A stretch of 64,000 bases of DNA, from positions 275,923-339,922 of the forward strand of contig JACOYB010000004.1 of the NCBI GenBank assembly GCA_016182085.1, in the 5' to 3' direction. This stretch comes from Candidatus Magasanikiibacteriota bacterium. Lineage in GTDB: Bacteria; Patescibacteriota; Patescibacteriia; Magasanikbacterales; GWA2-37-8. Shown piece after piece: positions 7,325 through 62,014 of the stretch (its first letter is position 1; every line of letters begins with the position of its first letter). Both the position numbers and the translations under genes were made by a program. The notes under the pieces are model-generated. The model searched no databases and had not been told where the DNA came from. It was given only the letters and a program-made list of their open reading frames with translations.

Positions 7325-7326
7325 AC

Positions 7327-8859: not shown

Positions 8860-8991
8860 ATTATATAGTATTGATTTTAGAAACTTACTATATCATAGGA
8901 AAGCAGCCGAGACAATAAATACATTGACAAAATTATTCTGTAGGATTACTGTTATTACTGATTCTTTTTATGTTTTAAACAAGTAAAACGT

Positions 8992-9927
8992 ATGAAAAAA
9001 CTTGCTATATATTTTTCCGATCCCGAACCGATGGGCTACCCGTTTAATTCCAAGTATCCCTATTGGGAAATTTATCAAGGCATCATTAAAGATATAGAAG
9101 CGCAAGGGCATAGTGTGTATGTTGTTCGCGGTAATTCATATCTCGGCAAGGGCGTATTTTCACATGGCTGGCGAGTTATAGACGATAGGATGGCGCCGGT
9201 AGCTGAGCCGATTACCGTAGATTTAATTTTCAACCGTGATGACAAAAATACCATCCCCGCAATTTACGATTGTCCGATCATAAATCATCCGGATTTGGAT
9301 AGATTATGCGTAGACAAGGTTGAGACCGCAAAATTTTTTCCCGAGCTTTCGCCCAAAACTAAAGCCATTAATTCATACCAGGAATATTTGGGTGCAATTA
9401 AGGAATGGGGTTTTGGTCCGGAAGAAAAGATTGTTTTAAAAAAGAATTTTTTGTCCGGCGGCCGCGGCATTTATATTCGTCCTATAAAAGAGATTGCCGA
9501 ATCATTATATGATGACTGGAAAGATATTCTTGTTCAAGAATTTGTAGACAATTCCATTGGAATTCCGGAAATAATTGAAGGTTTGCACGATATTCGCGTA
9601 GTTACTATAAATGGCGAACCGGTATATACGTTTGTACGCGTACCCCCAGCCGGATCATTTTTAGCCAATGTTTCCCAGGGTGGCACCGAGATACCGTTAA
9701 GTTTAAGCAAGCTTCCGAACAATTTGTTGAAATTGGTTGAAGAAGTAAATAAAAAGCTGTCTCATTATAGGCCAAGCATGTTTGCTTCGGACTTTGTTAA
9801 TTCTAAAAATGGATTTAAGCTGGTAGAACTTAATTCTCGCCCAGCTGTCTGTATCCCTTCACTTTCTTCGGAAACCAAAAATTATATTGATAAGATTGTG
9901 CAGCTCCTTGTAAAAGAGCTGTCCTAA
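8992..9927 (+). CDS. RimK/GshB-like ATP-grasp ligase, paralog 1
   Basis: 311 aa. FLANVSQGGTE (N-x-SQGG loop) and VELNSRPA (Mg-binding E-x-N) are ATP-grasp hallmarks. Confidence 0.7.
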   Translation: MKKLAIYFSDPEPMGYPFNSKYPYWEIYQGIIKDIEAQGHSVYVVRGNSYLGKGVFSHGWRVIDDRMAPVAEPITVDLIFNRDDKNTIPAIYDCPIINHPDLDRLCVDKVETAKFFPELSPKTKAINSYQEYLGAIKEWGFGPEEKIVLKKNFLSGGRGIYIRPIKEIAESLYDDWKDILVQEFVDNSIGIPEIIEGLHDIRVVTINGEPVYTFVRVPPAGSFLANVSQGGTEIPLSLSKLPNNLLKLVEEVNKKLSHYRPSMFASDFVNSKNGFKLVELNSRPAVCIPSLSSETKNYIDKIVQLLVKELS

Positions 9928-9949
9928 AATTATTTGCCTGCTTAACCCT

Positions 9950-10912
9950 ATGAAAAAACTCGCTATTTATTTTTCCAATCCCAAACCAATGGGCGATCCG
10001 TTTGATTTGCGGTATCCATATTGGCAGATTTATAAAGAAATAATTAGAAACGTGGAAAAACAGGGGATAGATGTATATGTTACCAGAGCCAAAGATTCGT
10101 ATTTGGGTAAGGGTGTTTTTACCCATGGTTGGAAAGTAGATGGGAAACAATTGATAGAAATAAATGAGCAAATTACCGTAGATTTAATTTTTCATCGCGG
10201 CAGCCAAGCCACCATCCCCGCGACCTATGATTGTCCGATCATAAATCATCCGGATCTGGAACGATTTTGTGGAGATAAGATAAAAGTAAACCAAGTATTT
10301 GCCGATATTTCTCCCAAAACTAAAGCTATTAATTCATACCAAGAATACCGAGATACCATTAAAGAATGGAATTTTAATCCTGAAGACAAGATTGTCGTAA
10401 AGAAGAATTTTCTCTACGGCGGGCACGGAGTATATATTCGCCCGATAAAAGAAATTACCGAATCGCTTTATGAAAATTGGCGCGATATTTTAATGCAAGA
10501 ATTCGTTGATAGTTCGGGGGGTATTCCCGGGATTGTTGAAGGCTTGCATGATATACGCGTAGTAACTATTAACGGCGAGCCAGTATATTCGTTTGTGCGA
10601 ACTCCTCCCGTTGGATCGTTTTTAGCCAATGTTTCCCAAGGAGGCGCGGAAAAGGCAGTGCCACTTTCCCAATTACCTGCGGAATTATTACAATTAGTTG
10701 AAAGAGTAAATAAGGAATTAGCACAGTACAGGCCCAGCATCTTTGCTTCCGACTTTTTCAATTCCAAAAACGGTTTTAAATTGATTGAATTAAATTCCCG
10801 TCCGGCTGTGTGCGACCCGGCCCAATCTCCGGAAACCAGAAATTATATTGATAAGATTATCCAATTACTCGTCAATACCATCAATAATTCTTTTAAAATG
10901 GAGAAAAATTAA
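9950..10912 (+). CDS. RimK/GshB-like ATP-grasp ligase, paralog 2 (tandem duplicate of 8992-9927)
   Basis: 320 aa, roughly 65% identical to the upstream paralog along its whole length (MKKLAIYFS.P.PMG.PF…IINHPDL…FLANVSQGG…ELNSRPAVC). Confidence 0.7.
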   Translation: MKKLAIYFSNPKPMGDPFDLRYPYWQIYKEIIRNVEKQGIDVYVTRAKDSYLGKGVFTHGWKVDGKQLIEINEQITVDLIFHRGSQATIPATYDCPIINHPDLERFCGDKIKVNQVFADISPKTKAINSYQEYRDTIKEWNFNPEDKIVVKKNFLYGGHGVYIRPIKEITESLYENWRDILMQEFVDSSGGIPGIVEGLHDIRVVTINGEPVYSFVRTPPVGSFLANVSQGGAEKAVPLSQLPAELLQLVERVNKELAQYRPSIFASDFFNSKNGFKLIELNSRPAVCDPAQSPETRNYIDKIIQLLVNTINNSFKMEKN

Positions 10913-38816: not shown

Positions 38817-39742
38817 ACGAGCGCGGTCTTTAAGTTTTGTAAGTTATCTTTCATAACCTGAATATAATTTTTACCGGCCCGCAGTTCTTCGTCTGTCAGT
38901 CCCTCTATAGGATTAAGCACAAGGGTTTGTGCGCCAATTTCATCTGCAATCGTGCGTGATAACTTTTGATCTATAATTGTTTCAAAGAAAATATATTTAA
39001 TATTTTTTTGTTTGGCCATGCTGGCGATCTCGGCTATTTTTTGCGGACTTGGCTCTTCGTCTGGAGATAGGCCCAAGATATAAAAGTTCGTTAAATTATA
39101 CCGCTTGGTCAAATAGCCAAACGCATTATGAGCGGTAATAATTTCTTTGGAGTCGCATGCTGCCAGGCCCGTTCGGTAATCAGTATCCAGTTGTTGTAGC
39201 TGCTTTTTAAATGCGGCCCTATTGTTATTATAATCCACAGCGCGGGCATTATCAATTTGTACCAGCGTCTCGGCAATAACATCGGTTTCTGTACTAACAT
39301 TTATCGGGTCTAGCCAAAAATGAGGGTCGTACAGCTTAGGTTCGGATTCCGCGTTGGTATCCTGTATCTTTTCCAGATGTTCGCTCATGTTTATAACTGT
39401 TATATTTTTTGCCTTAAGTTCCGGAATGATTTTTTCGGCCCAGGCATCTATATCTCCGCCGTTTAAAATAAATAATTTTGCCCGATAAATTTTAGCCAGG
39501 TCTTGCGGTGTTGGTTCAAAGTCATGAGGTTCAACGCCAGCCGGAGTGATATTAATAACTTCCATATGTTTGCGGCTTACATTTTGGGCTATATCAGCCA
39601 GTGGGTAGAAAGTTGTAACAATCGTCGGTTTGCCTGGCGTAGTTACTACCGGCGGGCGCAAGGCGCTCATGGTAAAGATAGCCGCCATAGTTCCAAGCAG
39701 CGCCAAGGTAAGTAATAAATATTTTGATTTCATAGGGAACAT
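38807..39742 (-). CDS. znuA: metal ABC transporter substrate-binding protein (ZnuA/TroA family)
   Basis: Signal peptide, then periplasmic-binding-protein cluster-9 blocks with a His-rich patch. The gene overlaps znuC by 10 nt. Confidence 0.8.
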   Translation of the reverse strand: MFPMKSKYLLLTLALLGTMAAIFTMSALRPPVVTTPGKPTIVTTFYPLADIAQNVSRKHMEVINITPAGVEPHDFEPTPQDLAKIYRAKLFILNGGDIDAWAEKIIPELKAKNITVINMSEHLEKIQDTNAESEPKLYDPHFWLDPINVSTETDVIAETLVQIDNARAVDYNNNRAAFKKQLQQLDTDYRTGLAACDSKEIITAHNAFGYLTKRYNLTNFYILGLSPDEEPSPQKIAEIASMAKQKNIKYIFFETIIDQKLSRTIADEIGAQTLVLNPIEGLTDEELRAGKNYIQVMKDNLQNLKTALVCP

Positions 39743-39806
39743 ATATGGGCTTTAGCTTATATAATGAATAATAATTTTACTTAGATACCCTAACACATAA
39801 TCTAAA

Positions 39807-39818
39807 TACTTGCAAGTA
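39807..39818. promoter_or_regulatory. perfect 12-bp palindrome TACTTGCAAGTA in the znuA-zur divergent intergenic region (candidate Zur/Fur-type operator)
   Basis: The palindrome lies 30 nt upstream of the zur ATG and next to a TATGCTAT -10-like box. Confidence 0.4.
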
Positions 39819-39847
39819 AGTTGCATTTGTGTTATGCTATCTTCCGT

Positions 39848-40282
39848 ATGAAATGGGACAAACATACCAAACAATCTATAGAAGTTTTGCAGGAAAATCA
39901 GCTTAAGGCCACTTCGGCACGGGTGGAACTGTTGGATATTTTCAAGCATACCCAAAAACCTCTTAGTGTGACGGATATTTTTAAGATGTTCCAAAAAATC
40001 GGAGTGGATAAAGTTACTTTATATAGAAATATGGATTCACTGGTGAATCTTGGAATTATCAGGCAGGTACGCCTTAAAGACAGACAGGCCTATTACGAAC
40101 TGGCCTCTCACGGGCATCATCATCATGTAGTTTGCAGCCAGTGCGGCAGGATCAAAGACATGTCCGGCTGCGGTATTAATTTTGTGAGTAAAAAATTTTT
40201 AAAACTATCCGGTTTTGCCAAGATAACCGAGCACTCGTTGGAATTTTTCGGCGTCTGCGCTTCCTGTATGAAAAAAAGATAG
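39848..40282 (+). CDS. zur: Fur-family transcriptional regulator (Zur-like)
   Basis: Start at ATG 39848. The DNA-binding helix, HGHHHH, and the CSQCG / CASC zinc sites are present. It is divergent from znuABC. Confidence 0.8.
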   Translation: MKWDKHTKQSIEVLQENQLKATSARVELLDIFKHTQKPLSVTDIFKMFQKIGVDKVTLYRNMDSLVNLGIIRQVRLKDRQAYYELASHGHHHHVVCSQCGRIKDMSGCGINFVSKKFLKLSGFAKITEHSLEFFGVCASCMKKR

Positions 40283-40327
40283 GGCTGAAAAAGAAAAGGT
40301 GTGGTACAATAGTTGTGCCAGCATAGT

Positions 40328-41473
40328 ATGAAATTTCCCGGAAAATTAATTCTTCCAAGTATATTTTTAGTGGTTATAGCCGCTCTTTTTGGTTTTGGCG
40401 GCAGCGTTGCTCAAGCTCAAACCACCCCAGATTTATCCGATAAGTATTATCGGGCCAAAGTAGTTAAAATTTTAGAAACCGGTGAAAAAGCAGTTGAAGA
40501 TAGCCAAACGCTCAAATATCAAAAATTGGAACTTCAAATATTAAATGGTGATGAAAAAGGCAAGCGGGTCATTATAGATCATGGCGCCACGTTTGTGGTG
40601 TCCGATAGTCAGATGGCGCAAGAAGGCGAGCAGGTGATAATTGCTAAAACTCCGGAATTACCCGGTGGCAAATCCGTATATTATATTACGGATAAATATA
40701 GACTCAATAATCTAATTGCCATCGTTCTTATATTTTTTGCGACCGCGATTTATTTTGCCCGCAAGCGCGGCGTTACTTCCATTATCGGCATGCTATTTAG
40801 CGTGTTCATAATTTTTTACTATATTATTCCATCAATTTCAAAAGGCGCAAATCCGTTTTGGGTTTGCCTTGGCGGGTCAGTAGTCATACTTCTTGTATCT
40901 TTATACTTTTCACACGGGTTTAATAAACGCACAAGTTTGGCGCTCGTAAGCAGTTTTATTTCGCTTGGTTTGGCTGCTATTATTAATATACTTTTTGTAA
41001 GTATTGCCAAGTTGTCCGGTAATGGCACGGAAGAAGTTTTTTATCTGCAATTTGCAAATTCCAGTATTGATATGCGCGGGCTGCTGCTGGGGGGAATTAT
41101 TATTGGGGTTTTAGGCGTATTAGATGATGTAACTACGGCGCAGACGGCCGTAGTGGAAGAAATTTCTTTGGCCAATAACAGCTTTGGGTTTCAAGAGCTT
41201 TATAAAAGGGGATTGTCTGTCGGCAGAGAACATATTTCTTCGCTTGTAAATACACTCGTGCTTGCGTATGCCGGTATATCATTGCCGCTGCTGCTTTTAT
41301 ACAGCAGTCAAAAATCACAGCCAATTTGGATGGCGGTAAATAGCGCTTTTATTGCCGAAGAAATTGTGCGAACACTGGTGGGCAGTACGGTTTTGGTGCT
41401 CGCCGTACCCATTACTACGATTTTAGCCGCTTGGGCATATTCACGAAAAAATTCTCTTTTATTAAATAGATAA
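40328..41473 (+). CDS. YibE/F-family membrane protein
   Basis: Signal/TM segment, an extracytoplasmic domain, six TM helices, and the GVLDDVTTAQ motif. Confidence 0.6.
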   Translation: MKFPGKLILPSIFLVVIAALFGFGGSVAQAQTTPDLSDKYYRAKVVKILETGEKAVEDSQTLKYQKLELQILNGDEKGKRVIIDHGATFVVSDSQMAQEGEQVIIAKTPELPGGKSVYYITDKYRLNNLIAIVLIFFATAIYFARKRGVTSIIGMLFSVFIIFYYIIPSISKGANPFWVCLGGSVVILLVSLYFSHGFNKRTSLALVSSFISLGLAAIINILFVSIAKLSGNGTEEVFYLQFANSSIDMRGLLLGGIIIGVLGVLDDVTTAQTAVVEEISLANNSFGFQELYKRGLSVGREHISSLVNTLVLAYAGISLPLLLLYSSQKSQPIWMAVNSAFIAEEIVRTLVGSTVLVLAVPITTILAAWAYSRKNSLLLNR

Positions 41474-41495
41474 CAAATATAGTATAATAAATTCC

Positions 41496-42173
41496 ATGCC
41501 AAACCATGTAAGCGAATCGGCGCTCACAGATACATTAACGCCTCTGGAAGAAGTGCGCGGACAAATTCCCGCTTTGAAAGCCGGTGATATTATTTTGATA
41601 CATATAAAACGTTCTCTGCTGCGAAGCTTAATTCGCCGCGTGACCAAAAGTTATTGGGATCATGTGACAGCTATAGTGTATCCTAAAGATAATGACAAAT
41701 TACAGCAGAGCATTATTATTGAAAATATCAATCCCGGGTTAAGCGTTGATTATTATTTTTTAAGATCAGCTCTTCGAGGCACGGAAATACACCACTTAAA
41801 TAAATATTTGAATAATCCAAAAAAATACGATATCGGAATTAAGCGTGTTTCTTGGCTGACCGATGCGCATCGTAAGCGCCTCTCTTCTTTTTTGGTTACA
41901 ACTATTGATACGCCGTATTGGCCGATGCCGTATTGGAAATTTTTTTTAGCCTCAATTTGGCCAAAATTTCGCCGTTGGTTTTTACATCAACAAAGATGGA
42001 GCTGTTCAACTTTAGTGCAAATGGCATATTACGAGTCCGCGGCCAATTGGGAGGAGCGTTTAAAATTAATTTTTAAAGAAGGGGATCTATCGCCGCTTGA
42101 AATGCAAAGTATCGTATCTCCGGCTGAAATAGCGAATTCTGATAAGTCCCAGTGGATTTTTAACGAACATTAA
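41496..42173 (+). CDS. permuted papain-like amidase (YaeF/YiiX-like, His-before-Cys), paralog 1
   Basis: …SYWDHVTAIVYP… (His) precedes …RWSCSTLVQMAY… (Cys). Confidence 0.5.
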   Translation: MPNHVSESALTDTLTPLEEVRGQIPALKAGDIILIHIKRSLLRSLIRRVTKSYWDHVTAIVYPKDNDKLQQSIIIENINPGLSVDYYFLRSALRGTEIHHLNKYLNNPKKYDIGIKRVSWLTDAHRKRLSSFLVTTIDTPYWPMPYWKFFLASIWPKFRRWFLHQQRWSCSTLVQMAYYESAANWEERLKLIFKEGDLSPLEMQSIVSPAEIANSDKSQWIFNEH

Positions 42174-42212
42174 ATTTATTATATTGGCTTCACCACGTAT
42201 ATTTTCATTTGT

Positions 42213-42848
42213 ATGGAGTTATCAGAAAAAATGCAACAATGGCATTCTGTGGAAAGCCAGTTAAAATTAGCTGATATTATTCTTGTGCACGGGGAAACTC
42301 CTATTCGCCGCGCAATTCAGAAACGAACAGGTAGTTACTGGAATCATGTGGCTTTGGTGCTGCAGCCACCCCAATTGTCTTTGGGTATGCGCGGAGCCTT
42401 TATCATTGGCGCTATCAACAAAGGCATTGAAGTGCATCGGCTCCGAAAATATTCCGAGGAAAGGGGTAAATTTGATATTGGCGTTAAACGCCTGCCTTGG
42501 CTAACGGATGAAATGCGAGAAAATATTCTTTTGTTTATGTTAAACAAGATTGATTCCCCGTATGATTATACGCGGCTATTTGGCTATATTTTTGAAGGCA
42601 TGTTAAAATTTATTCTGCCAAAAGAAGCGTTTAAAAAAGTGCGCCGATCCATTGTGGTTTCTGAGCCCAACTCATTTGTGTGCAGCACGTTTATTCAACA
42701 CGCTTTTCTTGAATCTGTGCCCCGCAAAATGCAGGCCAAGACATTTGCTCGCGACCACTTGCGTTCACTGCTTGAAATAGAAGAGATGACGCCGGCAGAT
42801 TTTGCTCATTCGCAAAATTATGAATGGATTTTTAACCCTCATGTATGA
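42213..42848 (+). CDS. permuted papain-like amidase (YaeF/YiiX-like), paralog 2
   Basis: …SYWNHVALVLQP… and …FVCSTFIQHAF…; roughly 35-40% identical to paralog 1 in the same motif order. Confidence 0.5.
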   Translation: MELSEKMQQWHSVESQLKLADIILVHGETPIRRAIQKRTGSYWNHVALVLQPPQLSLGMRGAFIIGAINKGIEVHRLRKYSEERGKFDIGVKRLPWLTDEMRENILLFMLNKIDSPYDYTRLFGYIFEGMLKFILPKEAFKKVRRSIVVSEPNSFVCSTFIQHAFLESVPRKMQAKTFARDHLRSLLEIEEMTPADFAHSQNYEWIFNPHV

Positions 42849-43276
42849 AAAAAATTTTTCTGTCCATACTTACAATCTCTGCCTTTGCATTTTATGTAGC
42901 GTATCAGCGTATGGGCTGGGGATCTTCCACGCTTCCGCAGCTGCCTGGTCAGAATCCGGCTTTCACTTTTCCCGCATTCAGTAATGTGTTTGGAAATTAT
43001 AAAGACGGCAGATACCAAGGAATAAGCGTGGATGCGTATTATGGCCGAGTAGAAGTTTTAGCCATCATAGAAGGCGGCAGGATTGTTGATATAGAATTTT
43101 TAGATTATCCGCACGAGCAGCCAACCTCCAAACAAATAAATGCCGAGGCCGTGCCAATGCTTGAGATCGAAGCAATTGTCGCGCAAAGCGCTGAGGTGGA
43201 TATTGTATCCGGAGCTACCCAAACAAGCAGGGCATTTAAAGAATCGCTCGCCTCGGCGCTGGCTAAAGCCAAATAG
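42845..43276 (+). CDS. membrane-anchored FMN-binding domain protein (NqrC/RnfG-like)
   Basis: N-terminal TM segment. DIVSGATQTS is the S/T-G-A-T flavinylation motif of FMN_bind domains. Confidence 0.7.
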   Translation: MKKIFLSILTISAFAFYVAYQRMGWGSSTLPQLPGQNPAFTFPAFSNVFGNYKDGRYQGISVDAYYGRVEVLAIIEGGRIVDIEFLDYPHEQPTSKQINAEAVPMLEIEAIVAQSAEVDIVSGATQTSRAFKESLASALAKAK

Positions 43277-43277
43277 C

Positions 43278-44021
43278 ATGCGGGATACGAGAATTTTAAT
43301 GGGCATGCCTATTACGGTTGAAATCGCCGATCCGGCTGGCGCTCAAGAATCAATCAATCAAGTGTTTAACTACTTTGATTATGTAGATAAAAAGTTCAGC
43401 ACATATAAAGATAATAGTGAAATAAGCAGAATAAATAGGTATGAAATTGATGAAGCGGATTATACTAGTGACATGAAAGAAGTGTTGCGACTGTCCGAAG
43501 ATACGAAAAATAAGACAAGTGGATATTTTAATATTAAAGATAGAAACGGCAACCTTGATCCGTCAGGGCTGGTAAAAGGATGGGCAATTCATAAGGCCGC
43601 GGAAATGCTTTTCAAAGCCGGGTATAAAAATTTTTACGTGGAGGCTGGCGGCGATATTCAGGCTTCCGGTAAAAATAATTCTGGCCAAGATTGGCGGGTG
43701 GGGATACGTAATCCGTTTAATCAAGAAGAAATTGTAAAAGTAGTTCAGATCAGCAATATGGGCGTGGCCACTTCCGGCAATTATATTCGCGGTCAGCACA
43801 TCTACAATCCGCATAATATGGCAAACAATATTACGGAAATTACAAGTTTAACCGTGATCGGCGCCAGTGTTTATGAAGCTGACCGATTTGCCACGGCTGC
43901 CTTTGCCATGGGGCAGCAGGGGATTAATTTTATTGAAAATACGCCAGGGCTAGAAGGGTATATGATAAATGTAAATGGCGTGGCAACCATGACCGGTGGT
44001 TTTAAAAAGTATGTTGTATAA
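43278..44021 (+). CDS. apbE: FAD:protein FMN transferase ApbE
   Basis: ATG confirmed at 43278. ApbE blocks …GYFNIKDRNG…DPSGLVKGWA…EAGGDI…GVATSGNY… are present. The track ORF at 43140 is an out-of-context 5' extension. Confidence 0.8.
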   Translation: MRDTRILMGMPITVEIADPAGAQESINQVFNYFDYVDKKFSTYKDNSEISRINRYEIDEADYTSDMKEVLRLSEDTKNKTSGYFNIKDRNGNLDPSGLVKGWAIHKAAEMLFKAGYKNFYVEAGGDIQASGKNNSGQDWRVGIRNPFNQEEIVKVVQISNMGVATSGNYIRGQHIYNPHNMANNITEITSLTVIGASVYEADRFATAAFAMGQQGINFIENTPGLEGYMINVNGVATMTGGFKKYVV

Positions 44022-44027
44022 AAAAGT

Positions 44028-45542
44028 ATGTTGAAATATATTGATGATTTGCTTAATCGCGTGACAATGTATCGGCTGGTGCTCTATTATGTAACCGGCC
44101 TGTGGTTGGCAGCGTTTATCTTAAGTTTTTTTAAATTACTTCCATATACCCCGCTTGAATTTTTTATTTCGGCGGCGCTTATCGTGGGGGTCTGTTTATC
44201 GGTAAACTCAATTTTCGCGCGCGTGTTTGGCGCGCCGACCAACCTTGAATCTGTCTATGCCACGGCGTTTATTTTGATCCTGATAGTTCCGCCCATGAGG
44301 TCTAGCGGCCTTTTGCCGTTTTTGGTCTGGGCTGCGCTTTGGGCCATGGCTTCAAAATATATTTTTGCTATTTTTAAAAAACATATTTTTAACCCAGCGG
44401 CGTTTGCCGTGGGATTAACCGCTCTTACGCTTAACCGCTCCGCCAACTGGTGGGTGAGCAGTGTGTATTTATTGCCGTTTGTGGTAATTGGCGGACTGCT
44501 CGTAGTACGAAAGATCCAACGATTTGATTTGGTGATTAGTTTTTTGGTGGTGGCCTTTTTTTCTATTTCCGGTTTTAGTTTTCTAAAAGGCGCCGATCCG
44601 CTGTCTGTGGTAGAAAAAATTATGCTTTATTCGCCGCTGTTATTTTTTGGTTTTGCCATGCTTACCGAACCGTCCGGCACGCCGCCTACCCGCAATTTAC
44701 GCATCATGTACGGAGCTTTGGTCGGTCTTTTATTTAATCCCAATGTCCATGTTGGATCTTTTTACTTTACGCCTGAATTCGCATTGCTTACCGGTAATAT
44801 TTTTTCCTATTTAGTCAGTCCTAAACAAAAATTAGTTTTGCGGTTAAGAGAAAAAATTTTTTCGGCCAAGGATGTGTATGATTTTTGGTTTGCGTCTGAT
44901 AAAAAAATGAATTTTAAAGCCGGACAGTATATGGAATGGACCTTAGGGCACGAGTCTCAAGACAGGCGCGGTATCAGGCGCTATCTAACGATTTGTTCGT
45001 CTCCAACGGAAAAGGATATTATGGTTGGCGTAAAGTTCCCTCCCAATTCCAGCAGTTTCAAGCAATCAATGATTTCTTTAAAGAAGGGAGACACGATCGT
45101 GGTTTCTCAACTGGCCGGAGAATTTGTCTTGCCTCGTGACGCAAGCAAAAAACTGGTTTTTATCGCCGGCGGGATTGGGGTGACGCCGTTTAGAAGCATG
45201 GTAAAATATTTGTTGGATAAAAAGGAGCGGCGAGATATAGTTTTACTCTACTGTAATCATACGCCGGATGATGTTGCTTATAAAGACATTTTTGACGAGG
45301 CCAAAGCAACATTAGGAATGAAAACCGTCTACACGATTACCGATGAGCCGTTTCCAAAAAATTGGAAAGGAGCCACCGGATTTGTGGATGAAGCAATGAT
45401 TAAAAAGGCCGTGCCGGATTATAAGGAAAGGATGTTTTATATTTCCGGTACGCATGCCATGGTGGCGGCGTTTGTAGAGATTTTACAGAAAATGGGAGTG
45501 CGAAAAAAACAGATCGTCCAGGATTTTTTTCCCGGCTTTTAA
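44028..45542 (+). CDS. fusion: N-terminal polytopic membrane domain plus C-terminal ferredoxin-NADP-reductase-type FAD/NAD(P)-binding domain
   Basis: Roughly 270 aa with at least 7 TM helices, including FNPAAF and FNPNVH. Then RRYLTICS (an RxY[ST]…S FAD motif) and FIAGGIGVTPF (NAD-binding). The gene is operonic with FMN_bind and apbE. Confidence 0.6.
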   Translation: MLKYIDDLLNRVTMYRLVLYYVTGLWLAAFILSFFKLLPYTPLEFFISAALIVGVCLSVNSIFARVFGAPTNLESVYATAFILILIVPPMRSSGLLPFLVWAALWAMASKYIFAIFKKHIFNPAAFAVGLTALTLNRSANWWVSSVYLLPFVVIGGLLVVRKIQRFDLVISFLVVAFFSISGFSFLKGADPLSVVEKIMLYSPLLFFGFAMLTEPSGTPPTRNLRIMYGALVGLLFNPNVHVGSFYFTPEFALLTGNIFSYLVSPKQKLVLRLREKIFSAKDVYDFWFASDKKMNFKAGQYMEWTLGHESQDRRGIRRYLTICSSPTEKDIMVGVKFPPNSSSFKQSMISLKKGDTIVVSQLAGEFVLPRDASKKLVFIAGGIGVTPFRSMVKYLLDKKERRDIVLLYCNHTPDDVAYKDIFDEAKATLGMKTVYTITDEPFPKNWKGATGFVDEAMIKKAVPDYKERMFYISGTHAMVAAFVEILQKMGVRKKQIVQDFFPGF

Positions 45543-45571
45543 TTTTCGTCTGCCGGCTGATAATTATATAT

Positions 45572-46063
45572 ATGCAATCTGATACTGAAGCAATAATTCT
45601 ACGGCCTTCTCTGCAAGATATTTTTTCTTTGCCGCCCCTATTTACCCAGGCGGTTCATACGGATTTTTCTTTTTATAATGAACCGGTAAAACAGCGCATC
45701 ATGAAAAAAAATTCCCTGCTGCGATTATTTTTTGCCCGCCTGAGAAAGAGAAGAGTGCTGCTCGTTGCAAAAATTAGCGACAAATGCGTGGGCGTGGTTA
45801 TCGGAAGCCATACGGCGAGTATCGGTAATATTCATTGGTTGTTTGTGCTGCCTGAGTATCGGGGAAATAAAATCGGTTCGGCGCTACTGGCGCGCGCCGA
45901 AGCGGCTTTGGAAAAATTTGGCTGCCACAAGGTGGCATTGACCACGGAAATCGCCCCGGAATTTTATAAAAAATTAGGATATACGGTTGAAGGATTTTTA
46001 AAAAAACATTGGTGGAAAAAAGACTTCACGATTTTGAGTAAGAGTTTTGAGAAAATTGGGTAA
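45572..46063 (+). CDS. GNAT-family N-acetyltransferase
   Basis: …LFVLPEYRGNKIGSALLARAEAALEKFGCHKVALTT… is the acetyl-CoA-binding motif A. Confidence 0.8.
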   Translation: MQSDTEAIILRPSLQDIFSLPPLFTQAVHTDFSFYNEPVKQRIMKKNSLLRLFFARLRKRRVLLVAKISDKCVGVVIGSHTASIGNIHWLFVLPEYRGNKIGSALLARAEAALEKFGCHKVALTTEIAPEFYKKLGYTVEGFLKKHWWKKDFTILSKSFEKIG

Positions 46064-46159
46064 AAAAATAGAGCCTATTTTAGACCCGGCTCACAACGAG
46101 GGTCCGCTGGGTGTGCTCTCCTAGACTTTGGCGAAAGTATTAGGAGTGTTGCGGTGGGG

Positions 46160-46438
46160 TTACCGCGGGCAGAAACAGCAAGTGCCTCGTCGGCAGTTGG
46201 TGCAGCCGTTGTGCGCCCGCATACGCCGATCGGCGCAATATGTGCATCCGTTTGTGCAGTAGCCGCAACCCCGCCCCTGCTTGTCGCTCACAGGTTGCTG
46301 AGCTAGCTGTTTGGGCAGGCCTTTGGCTGCGAAGTGGCGAAGCAGGAATATAGTGCAGACGAAGACGGTCACCCCCACAATCAGAAGCAGTACCAGAACC
46401 GGGGTTCCGAGGCCGCTAAACGGGTTGTCTGGACTCAT
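46160..46438 (-). CDS. small membrane-anchored Cys-rich protein, roughly 58% GC
   Basis: One TM helix (VLVLLLIVGVTVFVCTIFLL), then 13 Cys in the last 35 aa (CGYCTNGCTYCADRRMRAHNGCTNCRRGTCCFCP). Composition is atypical. Confidence 0.4.
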   Translation of the reverse strand: MSPDNPFSGLGTPVLVLLLIVGVTVFVCTIFLLRHFAAKGLPKQLAQQPVSDKQGRGCGYCTNGCTYCADRRMRAHNGCTNCRRGTCCFCPR

Positions 46439-46600
46439 CTTTTCTATACCTTTTTTGCTAGACCCCTATTGATTATAGGGGTATTTCTAGTGAAGAAAAC
46501 CAAGATAATCTATATCATTTTTAGCCATTTTTGTCAACCTTAAAGGTAGGGTAATTGCGAAATTTTGTTAGGTGTGCTACCATACTTTTTATATAAAAAT

Positions 46601-46891
46601 ATGCCGTTAGATGAAAAAAAGCTAAGTAAAATAATGGAGCGGATAATGTTTGAGTCTGTGGAACAAGGGGTTGATATGTCCGATCCAAAAGAGATGCGGG
46701 ATTTTGTCAATCAAATCGTGGAAAAAATATTGGGGTCAAATCATCCACAGCAGCAAGAATACGAGGAAACCATCGTTTCCGATATGTATAGGGAAGAAAC
46801 GTTAGATAAGACGGGTAGTGAAGGTTATCATGAAAGGATGAGAGGCGCGCGAGCCAATGAATACAAAAATTCAGATATAACAAAAAGATAG
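46601..46891 (+). CDS. hypothetical acidic protein
   Basis: Start moved to ATG 46601, since the track start is TTG. No motifs. Confidence 0.35.
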   Translation: MPLDEKKLSKIMERIMFESVEQGVDMSDPKEMRDFVNQIVEKILGSNHPQQQEYEETIVSDMYREETLDKTGSEGYHERMRGARANEYKNSDITKR

Positions 46892-49730: not shown

Positions 49731-51098
49731 ATGCCTAAATCTGATTTGATCAAAGAAGCAATGCCGGTTACCAAAGCCTCGGTAAAACCAGATTTAACCG
49801 TTGCCGCCCACACCTCCGGTGAAATGATAAACTACCGAGACAGCTGGCGCATTTTTAGAGTTGTGTCCGAATTTGTGGAGGGATATCAGCTTTTGGGGGA
49901 ATTAACCAAAGAAGTAACCATTATGGGTTCGGCGCGATTGCCTGCCAATAGTAAATATTATCACATCGCTGAAGAACTAGGCTATTTGCTGGGAAAGAAT
50001 GGTTTTACCACCATCACCGGCGGCGGCCCGGGTATTATGGAAGCGGCCAATAAAGGGGCCTTTGAAGCAGGCGGAGAATCTGTAGGCATAAACATCCAAT
50101 TGCCCATGGAGCAGCGCATTAATCCGTATGTAAAAAAATCAGCGGCATTTTTCTATTTCTTTTCCCGCAAAGTAATGTTAACGGCTCCGGCCAATGCCTT
50201 TGTGTTTTTTCCCGGCGGTTTCGGCACGTTAGACGAATTTTTTGAAGTTGTAGACTATATTGAAATGGGGCACATGCCAAAAGTGCCGATTATTATGGTG
50301 GGCAAAGAATTTTGGGAGCCGATTATAAATTTTTTGCGCGCCAAATCCGCTCGCGAAGTCAATTCCATAAACGAAGCCGATTTAAATCAGTGGCATGTGG
50401 TAGATACAGCCAAAGAAGCTTTTGAATTTATAAAAGATACTGAAGATCGCCCCAATCCATGGGTAAAAGATCCGAGTAGTCCGTTTTACCAAGGTGATTT
50501 GAACTGGAGAATTTTTAGAATCATGGCGGAAATGGTAGACGGTTTTGAGTTTCTTACCAAGATTCAGCGTGATGTGACCGTGCTTGGTACGAGCAGCATC
50601 CTGCAAGGCAGCCCGTATTATCAAGCAGCCTACGAACTTGGTAAAATTTTGGCAGACCAGCAATACGCCACCATCACCGGCGGCGGCCCGGGTATTATGG
50701 AAGCGGCCAATAAAGGGGCCTTTGAACGCGGCGGGCAAAGTTTGGGTATCAATATGCGTACTGAACGGGGAGAGCGCATAAACAATTATGTTACCCAGTC
50801 AATTGGTTTTTTCTTCCCATATATTCGCAAACTTATAATTACCGCGCCTTCGGAAGCATTTGTATTTTTCCCCGGTGGTTTCGGCACCTTGCATCAGCTA
50901 TTTGAAATTTTAACGTTGCAGGAAACAAATAAAATAAAACCGATCCCGACGCTTCTCTATGGCCGTGAATTTTGGCAGCCGCTGTTGGATATTGTTCACA
51001 ACTTGCATGATGAATTTAAAACTATTACCAGAATTGACGAAGACTTTTTGAAACTGATGGATTCGCCCCAAGATATTCTTCAGCATCTAAAAAAATAA
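49731..51098 (+). CDS. tandem-duplicated LOG-family (TIGR00730 Rossmann) protein, two full domains in one 455-aa chain
   Basis: TITGGGPGIMEAANKGAFE…GG.S.GIN…PGGFGTL..F..L.. occurs twice (residues roughly 90-210 and roughly 300-420). Confidence 0.75.
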   Translation: MPKSDLIKEAMPVTKASVKPDLTVAAHTSGEMINYRDSWRIFRVVSEFVEGYQLLGELTKEVTIMGSARLPANSKYYHIAEELGYLLGKNGFTTITGGGPGIMEAANKGAFEAGGESVGINIQLPMEQRINPYVKKSAAFFYFFSRKVMLTAPANAFVFFPGGFGTLDEFFEVVDYIEMGHMPKVPIIMVGKEFWEPIINFLRAKSAREVNSINEADLNQWHVVDTAKEAFEFIKDTEDRPNPWVKDPSSPFYQGDLNWRIFRIMAEMVDGFEFLTKIQRDVTVLGTSSILQGSPYYQAAYELGKILADQQYATITGGGPGIMEAANKGAFERGGQSLGINMRTERGERINNYVTQSIGFFFPYIRKLIITAPSEAFVFFPGGFGTLHQLFEILTLQETNKIKPIPTLLYGREFWQPLLDIVHNLHDEFKTITRIDEDFLKLMDSPQDILQHLKK

Positions 51099-58378: not shown

Positions 58379-59941
58379 ATGAGCTTTTTTAAAACAAAGA
58401 AATTTTTTATTATCCTGGGTATCGCGGCGGTGGGCGGTTTGATTGCGTATAGCCAAGTTAAAAAAGCTAATAAACCGCCGGAATATGAAACCGTTAAAGT
58501 TCAAAAGGGGGATTTAACTCAAACCGTGGAAGCAACCGGAAAGGTAGAGTCGCAAAGCGATTTATCTTTGCGTTTTGAAGTGCCGGGCGTGGTAGAGCGA
58601 GTAAATGTCGCGGCTGGAGCCAAAGTAAAAGCCGGAGATATCTTGGCCAGCTTGAAACTGTCTGAATTAAATGCGGCCGTGGCCCAGGCGCAAGCCAACC
58701 TAAACCAAAAAATTGCCGGAGCCACGCAGGCGGAAAAGGATTATTATAAAGCCGTCCTAGATCAGGCCGCGGCTGATTTGGAAAATAGCCAGGTAGTGGT
58801 TAATGCGTATGAAGATGCGGTTGTGGTGCTGCAAGCTTCAATAATTAAGTTAGATGACGGGCTGGTACAGGCCGATAATATTTTGGGTATAGACAATGCG
58901 AGCGCTAACGATCAATTTCAATCCTTATTATCCGTATCCGATTTAAATAAATTAAATATTGCTAATTCGCAATATTTAATTGTTAAAAATTTAGTGGTTC
59001 AAGCTAAACTTAAAATCGTGCCGCTTACCGGTTTAAGCGCTTCTGTCGATATTGACGCAGCGTTGCTTGCGGCAATTGATGCGCTTGTGCAAATGAACCA
59101 ATTGTTAATTACAGTTGGAGATGCGCTGGGCGCTTCGCAAACAGGCATTAATTTATCTCAAACCGAATTAGCTGCCAAAAAAACTACTATAGATACGACC
59201 AGAACTTCGGTAAACACACAATTTGTGGCTGTAACCAATGCCAAGCAAACAATCGCGGATGCCAAGGTATCGCTTAAAGTAAAAGAAGCCGTATATAACC
59301 AAGCGTTGGCTAATTATAAAAATAAGAGCAATCCGGTTCGTGAAGTGGATGTGGCTGCTCTGAGAGCGGCTTTATCTCAAGCTGTGGCCAATCGTAATAA
59401 AGCGATCATTAGAGCGCCGATAGCCGGCGTGGTTACTTCTATAAGCAAGAAAGCTGGTGAATTCGCCGTTTCCAGCGAAGAAATGGTGCGAATGTTTGTG
59501 CCGCACTATGAAGTAAAAGTAGATATCCCGGAAACAGACATCTCAAAATTAAAGATGGGTGATACCGTTGAAATCACGCTTGACGCGTTTGGCGATGAAA
59601 CAAAATTTTCCGGCAAAGTAATAAATATGGAGCCTGGCTCCACCGATATTTCCGATGTCGTGTATTATAAAGTTACGATTACTATTAACGATTCTGATAA
59701 AGATATTAAGCCTGGTATGACCGCCAATGTAAAAATAAACACCGATTCTCGTCCCGCGGCTTTATTCATCCCGCTGAGATCTGTGCGTACAAATGATGAT
59801 AGCGGCAAATTCGTGAAAGTTCTTAAAAACGGACAATCGGTTGATGTAAACGTAAAACTTGGCATTCGCGCCGATAATGGACAAGTTGAAATTTTAGAAG
59901 GGCTCAGCGAAAATGATGAAGTAATTCTCAGCGTGAAATAA
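58379..59941 (+). CDS. HlyD/MacA-family periplasmic adaptor with an extended coiled coil
   Basis: N-terminal TM, biotinyl-lipoyl-like hairpin halves (…VKAGDILASL… / …RAPIAGVVTSI…), a long alpha-helical hairpin, and a beta-barrel C-terminus. Confidence 0.8.
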   Translation: MSFFKTKKFFIILGIAAVGGLIAYSQVKKANKPPEYETVKVQKGDLTQTVEATGKVESQSDLSLRFEVPGVVERVNVAAGAKVKAGDILASLKLSELNAAVAQAQANLNQKIAGATQAEKDYYKAVLDQAAADLENSQVVVNAYEDAVVVLQASIIKLDDGLVQADNILGIDNASANDQFQSLLSVSDLNKLNIANSQYLIVKNLVVQAKLKIVPLTGLSASVDIDAALLAAIDALVQMNQLLITVGDALGASQTGINLSQTELAAKKTTIDTTRTSVNTQFVAVTNAKQTIADAKVSLKVKEAVYNQALANYKNKSNPVREVDVAALRAALSQAVANRNKAIIRAPIAGVVTSISKKAGEFAVSSEEMVRMFVPHYEVKVDIPETDISKLKMGDTVEITLDAFGDETKFSGKVINMEPGSTDISDVVYYKVTITINDSDKDIKPGMTANVKINTDSRPAALFIPLRSVRTNDDSGKFVKVLKNGQSVDVNVKLGIRADNGQVEILEGLSENDEVILSVK

Positions 59942-59948
59942 ATTCCGT

Positions 59949-60671
59949 ATGGCGCTAATTGAAATAAAAGATCTAAAGAAAAACTACGAAAATGACGGGG
60001 TGTCTACTTCTGTGCTGCACGGCTTAAATTTTACGATTGAAAAAGGCGAGTTTGTGGCCATTATGGGGCCAAGCGGATCGGGGAAATCCACTCTTATGCA
60101 TATCCTTGGTTTTTTGGATAAGTTAAGTTCGGGCTCATATATTTTTGGCGGCCAGGACGTCAGCGCTTTAAGTGATAATGAACTCGCCGATATGCGCAGC
60201 CATCAGGTGGGGTTTATTTTTCAGGCATTTAACCTGCTTCCTCGCACTACGGTCGTGGAAAATGTGATGTTGCCGCTTACTTATGTCAAAATGGATCAAA
60301 CCGAGCGGATAAAAAAATCCAAAGAAGCGCTTATATCGGTTGGCTTAGGGCATCGATTGGATTATTTTTCCAACCAGCTGTCCGGCGGAGAAAAGCAGCG
60401 CGTAGCCATCGCTCGGTCGCTGGTAAATAATCCGTCCGTTATTTTTGCGGATGAGCCGACCGGCAATCTTGATTCAAAATCCGGTTTGCAGGTAATGAGA
60501 ATTCTGCAAAATTTAAATGAACAGGGCCATACAATTATTTTGGTGACCCATGAGAAATATACGGCCGATCACGCACGTCGTATTTTGCGTATTAAGGACG
60601 GTCTTATCGTAGAGGATGTTCCGGTATCAAACAGATTATTGGCAAAAGACGTGGAAGAGTTGAAAAAATAA
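59949..60671 (+). CDS. MacB/LolD-type ABC transporter ATP-binding protein
   Basis: [17 protein letters not shown] and [10 protein letters not shown] motifs. Confidence 0.9.
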
Positions 60672-60775
60672 TATTCATATATTCTCACTCATTTATTATA
60701 TGGGCTAAAGCCCATATAAACTCACTCACTCTGAAATAAATTAGCAAGCTATTTATTTCCTCATTCGTTTCGATT

Positions 60776-62014
60776 ATGAATATCTTTAAAGAGATTCACA
60801 GCGTCTGGAATATTATTGGTCGTAACAAGGTGCGATCTTTTTTAACCATGCTTGGAATTATTATCGGTATCATGTCCGTAATTGTGGTGATGTCGGTTGG
60901 CGCCGGCGCGCAAAGTTTGATTTTAAATCAAGTTACAAGCCTGGGTTCAAATTTAATCGGCGTGCTTCCGGGAAAATCTGAAGATGACGGTCCGCCAGCG
61001 GCAGCTATGGGGATTGTGGTTACAACCTTAAAATACGACGATATAAAAGCGTTAACCGGACCGGAATTTCCCAGTATCATTGCTGCCACCGCCTATGTGC
61101 GAGGCGCCGATACTATAAATTGGGGTGAAAATAAAACCGACACTAGTTTTGTCGGTGTTTCAGCGGATCTGCCAAATGTTGAGGATACAAAAATAGCCAA
61201 AGGCAGGTTTTTTTCAGAAGAGGAAGAAAAGAGTTTGGCTAGAGTGGTTGTACTCGGCAGCCAAACAGCCGCAGATTTATTTGATGACATAAATCCAATA
61301 GGAAAACAAATTAGAATTAAAAAAACTTCTTTTACGGTCATTGGGGTCATGACCGAACGAGGAGTGAGCGGTTTTCAAAATCAGGATAATCAGATATATG
61401 TGCCGATTACCACGGCTCAAAAATTGCTTCTAGGTATAAATTATGTAAGTTTTGGACGTCTCAAAGTAGACAAAGCCGAGAATGTGGATAAGGGTGTAGA
61501 GTATATTAAGCAAGTTTTAAGAGAACGACATAAAATAACCAATCCGGAAGAGGATGATTTTTCTGTACGAACCACGGCTCAAGGTTTGACAACTTTAACC
61601 AATATTACGAACGCGCTTAAAATCTTTTTGTCTGCAGTCGCAGCCATATCTTTGATCGTGGGCGGTATTGGCATCATGAATATTATGCTTGCGGCCGTGC
61701 AAGAAAGAACCAGAGAAATCGGGCTGCGCAAAGCTGTGGGCGCGAAAAATTCCAATATTATCTCTCAGTTTTTAATTGAAACCGTAATGATTACCTTTTT
61801 GGGCGCGGCCATTGGCATACTTTTGGGCGCTTTGATTTCTTTCGCAGCCGGTACAATTGCCCAAAGCATGGGTTACCACTGGGATATCGTCGTATCTCTT
61901 TCTTCTATTTTGGCTGCCTGTGCCGTGGGAGTTGGTATTGGTTTGGTGTTTGGCATTGTGCCAGCCCGTCGAGCAAGCAAGCTTAACCCAATTGAAGCGC
62001 TACGGTATGAATAA
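60776..62014 (+). CDS. MacB/FtsX-type ABC permease 1
   Basis: 412 aa: N-terminal TM, a large periplasmic domain, and three C-terminal TM helices with the FtsX-fold motif …ERTREIGLRKAVGA…. Confidence 0.8.
   Translation: MNIFKEIHSVWNIIGRNKVRSFLTMLGIIIGIMSVIVVMSVGAGAQSLILNQVTSLGSNLIGVLPGKSEDDGPPAAAMGIVVTTLKYDDIKALTGPEFPSIIAATAYVRGADTINWGENKTDTSFVGVSADLPNVEDTKIAKGRFFSEEEEKSLARVVVLGSQTAADLFDDINPIGKQIRIKKTSFTVIGVMTERGVSGFQNQDNQIYVPITTAQKLLLGINYVSFGRLKVDKAENVDKGVEYIKQVLRERHKITNPEEDDFSVRTTAQGLTTLTNITNALKIFLSAVAAISLIVGGIGIMNIMLAAVQERTREIGLRKAVGAKNSNIISQFLIETVMITFLGAAIGILLGALISFAAGTIAQSMGYHWDIVVSLSSILAACAVGVGIGLVFGIVPARRASKLNPIEALRYE

Follow-up and report, generated by a model that had tools for sequence, protein, structure and literature searches.

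The stretch of DNA analysed here, referred to as the window, comprises 64,000 nucleotides of a Candidatus Magasanikiibacteriota genome (assembly GCA_016182085.1, contig JACOYB010000004.1, positions 275,923 to 339,922), and all coordinates given below are positions within it. At 42845-45542 on the forward strand, the window carries three co-oriented, abutting genes that form a compact flavin module. In order, they encode an FMN_bind protein of 143 amino acids (42845-43276), an ApbE flavin transferase of 247 amino acids (43278-44021), and a protein of 504 amino acids (44028-45542) in which a membrane domain is fused to an FNR-type reductase. The TAG stop codon of the first gene (43274-43276) is separated by 1 nt from the ATG of the second at 43278, and the TAA stop of the second (44019-44021) lies 6 nt ahead of the ATG of the third at 44028. 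These are exactly the coordinates and junctions (43276/43278 and 44021/44028) described in the initial annotation of the window, which was made from the DNA letters alone. A longer open reading frame (ORF) in the ApbE frame starts at 43140 and overlaps the FMN_bind gene; because its extra part is hydrophilic and adds no hydrophobic segment, and because homologues share the start equivalent to 43278, the latter is the likely ApbE start. The module belongs to a run of same-strand genes with very short spacers (39821-46063). Scanning 39600-46700 for promoters and terminators gave counts at or below shuffled expectation, which do not delimit the operon, and Rfam detected no riboswitch, such as an FMN riboswitch, near the module.

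The three-gene arrangement is real. A survey that scanned one genome per species yielded 17 full-length related loci, and since all 17 keep the same three genes in the order FMN_bind, ApbE, fusion protein, chance juxtaposition is excluded; the flanking genes vary. Represented among them are Staskawicz-, Doudna-, Nomura-, Adler- and Falkowbacteria, Paceibacterota and Saccharibacteria, together with a single Ktedonobacteraceae genome. Full-length homologues of the fusion protein number well over 100, at 55-97% identity, and almost all of them come from Patescibacteria metagenome-assembled genomes (MAGs), with Magasanikbacteria at 72%. The membrane domain alone is represented by at least 334 clusters at 50% identity (E <= 1e-30), and because most of their full-length members are 490-515 amino acids long, the fused form is the norm. 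Three of the loci (L001, from CAZUFD010000001.1, L002 and L017), which include the closest MAGs at 97% and 66% protein identity, are labelled "uncultured Gammaproteobacteria bacterium"; these labels look wrong, as the gene content and all other relatives are those of Patescibacteria.

Domain architecture of the three proteins

The FMN_bind protein (42845..43276, +) is recognized by Pfam PF04205 with an E value of 3.8e-9. Its N terminus consists of MKK and a hydrophobic anchor of ~17 residues (residues ~4-20), followed by a short linker and the FMN_bind domain at residues ~62-142. The maximum 10-residue Kyte-Doolittle value of this N terminus is 2.34, and the segment may be either a signal peptide or an anchor. 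Toward the C terminus lies the flavinylation motif S122-G-A-T125 (43208..43219, +; context DIVSGATQTS), found with the pattern [ST]G[AS][ST], in which Thr125 is the predicted site of flavin mononucleotide (FMN) attachment. The site is present in every FMN_bind orthologue of the 17 loci, and the pattern matches neither ApbE nor the RnfD-like domain of any of them. The orthologues also retain the anchor, with two Lys/Arg residues preceding a hydrophobic segment of ~17 residues, and many insert a Thr/Pro/Ser-rich linker of up to ~200 residues ahead of the ~80-residue FMN_bind domain. As sequence features, the anchor and linker fit a tethered, exported domain. The best PDB relatives, 40-50% similar, are 8p2a (E 3.9e-12) and 8p2b (E 6e-7), single FMN-binding domains of bacterial multi-flavinylated proteins for which covalent attachment of FMN via ApbE was shown experimentally (PMC10339131). 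In two Saccharibacteria loci, the FMN_bind gene was missed by phmmer yet is present, with the motif TK[VI]SGSS.

The second gene (43278..44021, +) encodes a short ApbE FAD:protein FMN transferase, matched by Pfam PF02424 with an E value of 3.9e-44. Alignment to Vibrio cholerae ApbE (6nxi) shows that KGW, GGD, ATSGNY, the His of "QHIYNP" and ADxxAT are all kept, this His being the residue replaced in the variant entry 6nxj. The protein is shorter than canonical ApbE by ~48 residues in its N-terminal half.

The C-terminal part of the fusion protein (residues ~269-504; 44832..45542, +) is an FNR-type FAD/NAD(P)H reductase domain predicted to be cytoplasmic. Pfam NAD_binding_1 (PF00175) covers residues 378-482 (E 4.1e-20), and NCBIfam FNR-family models span residues ~272-501, indicating a complete FAD+NAD module. 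The best PDB matches by sequence are the FAD/NAD domains of NqrF (E ~5e-15), and Foldseek likewise finds FNR folds. The domain contains the motifs R317-R-Y-x-T321 and G381-G-I-G-V-T-P387 and ends in FPGF; R317-R318, T321, G381-G-I-G-x-T-P387, S473-G474 and F501 are invariant or nearly so in 33-40 homologues. The FAD motif of the window protein reads RRYLT, with Leu where Ser or Thr is usual. The stretch YCNHTPDD, which follows strand two of the NAD domain, resembles the NADH-specific pattern of cytochrome b5 reductases and hints weakly at NADH.

The N-terminal part (residues 1-268; 44028..44831, +) forms a polytopic membrane domain. A profile built from the membrane domains of the 17 related loci and searched against the PDB matched only RnfD (8ahx_D, E 1.3e-4) and NqrB (E 0.03-0.04). 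The AlphaFold model of residues 1-268 has a predicted local distance difference test score (pLDDT) of 87.4 and a predicted template modelling score (pTM) of 0.84. The top 15 Foldseek matches of this model in the PDB are all RnfD/NqrB chains (E 9e-7 to 7e-4, query TM 0.57-0.73), and urea transporters come next with E > 0.3. Because the profile finds only RnfD/NqrB and all of the top 15 structural matches belong to the same proteins, the domain is identified, by sequence profile and modelled fold, as a trimmed RnfD/NqrB homologue rather than an unrelated transporter. This likeness is seen with the membrane-only query; phmmer with the single sequence and a full-length profile of the fusion protein gave FNR-family matches only in the PDB, and FNR folds dominate the Foldseek results of the full-length model. 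Residues invariant among homologues include N72, S75, K110, H119-x-F-N-P123, W141-W142 and E214-P215, and HIFNPA at residues 119-124 is invariant as a whole. No conserved pairs of haem-ligand His residues were found in the membrane domain.

The RnfD/NqrB-like domain differs from its homologues at the position of their covalent flavin. A loop of 13 residues, NRSANWWVSSVYL (residues 136-148; 44433..44471, +), stands where RnfD/NqrB has a segment that is ~70 residues longer and bears the covalently flavinylated Thr. In alignments based on hidden Markov models (HMMs), RnfD 121-142 corresponds to query residues 122-142 and RnfD 220 onward to query 150 onward, and NqrB 204 and 273 correspond to query 124 and 145. 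The segment around NqrB T236, the covalent FMN site, is thus absent from the fusion protein. The pattern [ST]G[AS][ST] is absent from the membrane domain in 118 of 120 homologues. Judging from these alignments, the membrane domain has lost its own flavinylation site.

The orientation of the domain was deduced by taking the ten helical segments of the AlphaFold model as membrane spans and counting Lys and Arg residues in the loops of the 17 sequences. Both termini then lie inside, with a mean of 7.3 Lys+Arg inside versus 1.2 outside and agreement in 17/17 sequences. The N terminus, the KKHIFNP loop and the junction with the FNR domain all lie on the Lys+Arg-rich side. This distribution places the FNR domain in the cytoplasm and turns the WW loop, which replaces the flavinylation loop, outward.

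The initial annotation had named an FMN_bind protein with an SGAT motif, an ApbE flavin transferase, a polytopic membrane domain with an FNPA-type motif and a fused FNR-type reductase, and each of these is borne out. Pfam returned FMN_bind, ApbE, NAD_binding_1 and a sub-threshold NQR2_RnfD_RnfE match, NCBIfam covered the FAD+NAD module, and the topology that had been left for determination comes out as N-in/C-in with the FNR side cytoplasmic, on positive-inside counts over the model helices. It had also allowed that the membrane domain might belong to an unrelated transporter family and that the FNR-like motifs might not be conserved; what was found is RnfD/NqrB homology, together with conservation of GGIGVTP, RRY.T and the C-terminal aromatic residue.

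A signal-less ApbE and a substrate predicted to face outward

As a rule, ApbEs acting on targets outside the cytoplasm are exported lipoproteins, and the cytoplasmic ApbEs known so far act on cytoplasmic targets (PMC12052999). In the window ApbE, neither a signal peptide nor a lipobox was found, and only ~4 residues precede the first motif of the ApbE domain. A signal peptide is likewise absent in all 17 loci and in all 120 of the closest homologues, every one of which is a stand-alone protein of 238-269 amino acids. The motif [ILVM]M[GA][MT], matched in 89 of these 120, is found no further in than residue 13, with a single exception in which it lies at residue 29 behind a leader that is likewise hydrophilic. 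In five loci (L002, L004, L008, L010 and L016), the frame from stop to stop is ~250 codons long, which leaves no room for a signal peptide. Export of ApbE as a fusion to FMN_bind, generated by frameshifting or readthrough, was considered and rejected, as the loci do not share the frame and overlap of their junctions and each of the 120 ApbE homologues stands alone. The consistent absence of the signal peptide is not among the statements in the available sections of Meheust et al. (2021) or Huang et al. (2024). The former survey filtered for signal peptides, and flavinylation was under-represented in the candidate phyla radiation (PMC8238504); the filter may be one reason for this, a link that is drawn here rather than in that paper.

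The FMN_bind protein, the only one here to carry a flavinylation motif, is predicted from its sequence to face outward. There are several possible ways out of this mismatch in topology, namely flavinylation before or during Sec export, an unrecognized route of ApbE export, or a wrong topology prediction for the FMN_bind protein. The first can be put forward only tentatively and is on balance rather doubtful. Under this scheme, a cytoplasmic, translationally coupled, signal-less ApbE would load FMN onto the C-terminal SGAT either ahead of Sec translocation or while it is under way, and the chain would pass out already flavinylated. If this were true, FAD export would be unnecessary, extracytoplasmic flavoproteins would have a new route of maturation, and the under-representation of candidate phyla radiation flavinylation in surveys demanding signal peptides would be explained.

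It is also conceivable, though improbable, that all three proteins act on the cytoplasmic side, with the FMN_bind protein serving as a membrane-tethered cytoplasmic flavin relay and no electrons crossing the membrane. Such an arrangement would suit an ApbE that is signal-less throughout its family, and cytoplasmic ApbEs acting on cytoplasmic targets are known, for example with Klebsiella fumarate reductase (PMC12052999). However, two Lys/Arg residues, a ~17-residue hydrophobic segment and, often, a Thr/Pro/Ser-rich linker are typical of exported tethered proteins, and the vacated flavin site of RnfD/NqrB is on the outer face, where the corresponding loop is predicted to lie here. A polytopic RnfD-like domain would, moreover, be purposeless in a cytoplasmic relay, and in the published multimer model the FMN_bind domain is docked at the extracytosolic side (PMC10979944).

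A probable electron conduit and its genomic setting

Meheust et al. (2021, eLife) used the term "NQR/RNF-like" for flavinylation-associated gene clusters that encode a fusion of PF03116 and PF00175, with a C-terminal cytosolic PF00175 domain on the same polypeptide and an apbE and/or FMN_bind gene at most five genes away, and counted 127 of them, chiefly from Actinobacteria and the candidate phyla radiation (PMC8238504). Huang et al. (2024) presented an AlphaFold-multimer model of the Ktedonobacter racemifer complex, in which the NqrB/RnfD flavinylation Thr is not conserved, the FMN_bind domain is extracytosolic, and the flavin of the NqrC/RnfG-like subunit is suggested to sample the vacated RnfD-like site (PMC10979944). 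The window module combines the same elements: an RnfD/NqrB-like domain, PF00175 on the same chain, adjacent apbE and FMN_bind genes, and loss of the Thr in the membrane subunit. The arrangement is already described from genome surveys and hence not new.

With a probability of about 0.72, the module is an NQR/RNF-like member that works as an NAD(P)H-to-extracytoplasmic-flavin conduit across the membrane. In the proposed mechanism, the cytoplasmic C-terminal FNR domain would oxidize NAD(P)H and reduce its own FAD. Electrons would then enter the fused RnfD/NqrB-like domain, presumably passing through one or two flavins held non-covalently at the counterparts of the riboflavin and FMN sites of RnfD/NqrB. 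At the outer face, they would exit to the FMN that ApbE is predicted to join, via a phosphoester bond, to Thr125 of the anchored FMN_bind protein, and this tethered flavoprotein would hand them to an extracytoplasmic acceptor. We infer the cofactors of the membrane domain, the direction of electron flow, the nucleotide specificity, the site of ApbE action and the acceptor. The initial annotation had proposed a minimal conduit of this kind; the analysis supports that proposal, which coincides with the published hypothesis (PMC8238504, PMC10979944).

Several points weigh against this interpretation. Pfam NQR2_RnfD_RnfE (PF03116) matches residues 151-263 of the fusion protein with an E value of 6.9e-5, below its gathering score; the same family is precomputed in most of the 120 fusion homologues. 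Neither a ferredoxin nor an Fe-S domain accompanies the FNR domain, and with no Fe-S relay, transfer from FAD to a membrane flavin must be direct. ApbE has no recognizable export signal though its substrate domain is predicted outside, so that one maturation step is unexplained. No acceptor gene is conserved beside the module in the 17 loci. Lastly, no experimental study of an NQR/RNF-like system was found in the literature, and both papers cited above are computational.

The conduit could also run inward, from an external low-potential donor to NAD(P)+ in the manner of RnfG to RnfD to RnfC, or be coupled to Na+ or H+ movement through the NqrB-like domain. RnfD and NqrB do belong to ion-translocating complexes, the Rnf branch is bidirectional (PMC12174285), and urea transporters, which come next in the Foldseek search, link the fold to channel proteins. 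Nevertheless, this is highly improbable, since neither the cluster nor its flanks contain the Fe-S subunits believed to gate ion coupling (RnfA/E, NqrD/E), none of the conserved neighbours is a donor protein, and the published interpretation of NQR/RNF-like clusters is one of unidirectional outward flow (PMC8238504).

The immediate genomic setting suggests a different role for the same architecture, namely assimilatory reduction of metal (ferric) ions at the cell surface for uptake, rather than redox balancing or respiration. A gene for a Fur-family regulator and a divergent metal-uptake operon of the ZnuA/ABC-3/ABC type precede the module in the window as well as in its closest relatives, and VIT1 iron transporters occur in 6 of the 127 published NQR/RNF-like clusters (PMC8238504). 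Against this, only the Magasanikbacteria-like relatives L001, L002 and L021 to L023 share the Fur/Znu neighbourhood, which is lacking in the other 15 loci, the substrate-binding protein and ABC-3 set looks like a Zn/Mn system rather than a ferrous iron importer, and no iron transporter is conserved beside the module. A role in metal assimilation is unlikely.

By Pfam, the genes directly upstream of the module (39821..42848, +) encode the Fur-family regulator, a YibE/F membrane protein and two tandem C92 (YaeF/YiiX) amidase paralogues. They are probably co-transcribed with the module and are not a conserved part of it. The YibE/F and Fur genes, present in the near-identical relative L001, also occur in L002. 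The C92 amidases, which are permuted papain-like enzymes (41496-42173 and 42213-42848, +), lie immediately before the module, and the second runs 4 nt into the FMN_bind gene, its stop codon overlapping the ATG. Because the pair is limited to the window and the 97%-identical MAG L001, it appears to be a recent insertion into the operon. A Magasanikbacteria relative has a DsrE gene and a hypothetical gene in place of the YibE/F and C92 genes; it keeps ZnuABC-Fur upstream and GNAT-GatC-GatA-LOG-Lgt downstream, with other genes between. In the window, a Pfam-assigned GNAT acetyltransferase gene (45572..46063, +) follows the module after 29 nt; it is kept in the closest relatives only (L001 and L021 to L023) and is absent from the other loci.

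In a search for a conserved acceptor gene, the only recurring neighbours among the 17 loci were an extracytoplasmic function (ECF) sigma factor (~6 loci) and an HlyD/ABC/MacB-FtsX/DUF5666 block (5 loci). The block abuts the module and comprises an ECF-type sigma factor, small DUF5666-like proteins, an HlyD-like protein, an ABC ATPase and a MacB/FtsX permease (L002, 7497-13435; equivalents in L003, L007, L011 and L015). In two Saccharibacteria loci (L013 and L014), the module is preceded by an ECF sigma factor and a membrane protein. The window has the HlyD/ABC/MacB part at 58379-62014, 13 kb downstream of the module, and no sigma factor or DUF5666 homologue was found. The block was rejected as a part of the module and treated as lineage synteny.

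Elsewhere, the window contains several features of separate interest. A full-model match to the group I intron family (RF00028, 73.9 bits) lies at 22743-23019 (+), outside any tRNA (ARAGORN found none) and, by Rfam, in a window containing no rRNA. The intron overlaps the end of a 108-amino-acid ORF (22505-22831) with a weak HNH match, and a DsrE-like ORF comes next at 23132-23458. Just upstream, at 20205-22388 (+), a 727-amino-acid ORF with no Pfam match has an unusual composition, with a GC content of 0.358, GC skew of 0.325 and AT skew of 0.197 in its surroundings, compared with a GC content of ~0.42 elsewhere. An ATP-grasp cluster at 4964-10912 includes a 786-amino-acid protein that joins a sugar-transfer-type ATP-grasp domain to a MATCAP-like (tyrosine carboxypeptidase) domain, beside a membrane protein with PKD and 7TM_transglut domains and two RimK-like ATP-grasp genes; the cluster could be a peptide-ligation or peptide-modification system. 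Lastly, a 455-amino-acid protein encoded at 49731-51098 (+) consists of two tandem LOG/Lysine_decarbox (TIGR00730-like) domains, a fusion also present in the Magasanikbacteria relative L021 (451 amino acids).

Comparison with known electron transfer systems

To our knowledge, bacteria of the candidate phyla radiation generally have no respiratory chains. In such cells, a self-contained electron path leading from NAD(P)H to the surface would be among the few candidate routes for reductant disposal, metal reduction or electron exchange with hosts. The window adds no new kind of system; it offers a clean, compact example and sharpens the question of how a signal-less ApbE matures an outward-facing flavoprotein.

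By analogy with established Rnf and Nqr structures, the module would correspond to the NADH-side half of Rnf (RnfC-RnfD-RnfG), with the fused FNR domain replacing RnfC. Like Rnf (PDB 9eri, 8ahx and 7zc6), it has an RnfD-homologous membrane domain, a predicted outer-face FMN_bind protein with covalent FMN comparable to RnfG, and a cytoplasmic partner for NADH. Unlike Rnf, it lacks RnfA, RnfB, RnfE and RnfC, and NAD(P)H would be handled by the fused FNR domain instead of the FMN and 4Fe-4S clusters of RnfC. Its RnfD-like domain is ~70 residues shorter and predicted to be itself unflavinylated, and its FMN_bind protein has a minimal domain of ~80 residues that is not RnfG-like by sequence. No six-subunit Rnf or Nqr operon was seen in the flanks, which contain Fur, YibE/F, two C92, GNAT and hypothetical genes, or among the larger window ORFs scanned. 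With the Na+-translocating Nqr complex, the module shares an FNR domain closest to the FAD/NAD domains of NqrF, a membrane domain that matches NqrB, and predicted ApbE-dependent FMN on a C-terminal SGAT-type motif as in NqrC; it differs in having no 2Fe-2S ferredoxin domain, no NqrA, NqrD or NqrE, no evidence of a quinone site, and no semicircular electron path.

The initial annotation had likened the module to flavin-based extracellular electron transfer (EET), and this comparison holds for the functional logic but not for the components. As in Listeria, a single-membrane cell would connect its cytoplasmic NADH with an FMN_bind protein that is tethered at the surface and flavinylated by ApbE. 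In Listeria, however, the membrane step is carried out by Ndh2 and demethylmenaquinone, whereas here it would fall to an RnfD-like flavin conduit, and Listeria FmnB is an exported lipoprotein for which FAD is exported, whereas the window ApbE has no export signal. None of the Listeria-type components Ndh2, DmkA/B, EetA/B, PplA and lipoprotein FmnB was found in the cluster or the flanks scanned.

FNR-fused haem transmembrane reductases (MsrQ-like/NOX proteins, including Streptococcus pneumoniae NOX, 8qt6) resemble the fusion protein in that a single chain combines a membrane domain with a cytoplasmic FAD/NAD(P)H domain and sends electrons outward, as is proposed here, and they too are found among flavinylation-associated clusters. 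Their membrane part is a bis-haem ferric-reductase domain, in contrast to the RnfD/NqrB (urea-transporter-like) fold found here. From the NQR/RNF-like system, in turn, the module differs in no respect of kind. Both join an NqrB/RnfD-like N-terminal membrane domain to PF00175 next to apbE and an FMN_bind gene, both have lost the NqrB/RnfD Thr, and both occur in candidate phyla radiation taxa, with a Ktedonobacteraceae member among the homologues; what sets the window module apart is a PF03116 match just below threshold and its lineage-specific neighbours, Fur, YibE/F, the two C92 amidases and GNAT.

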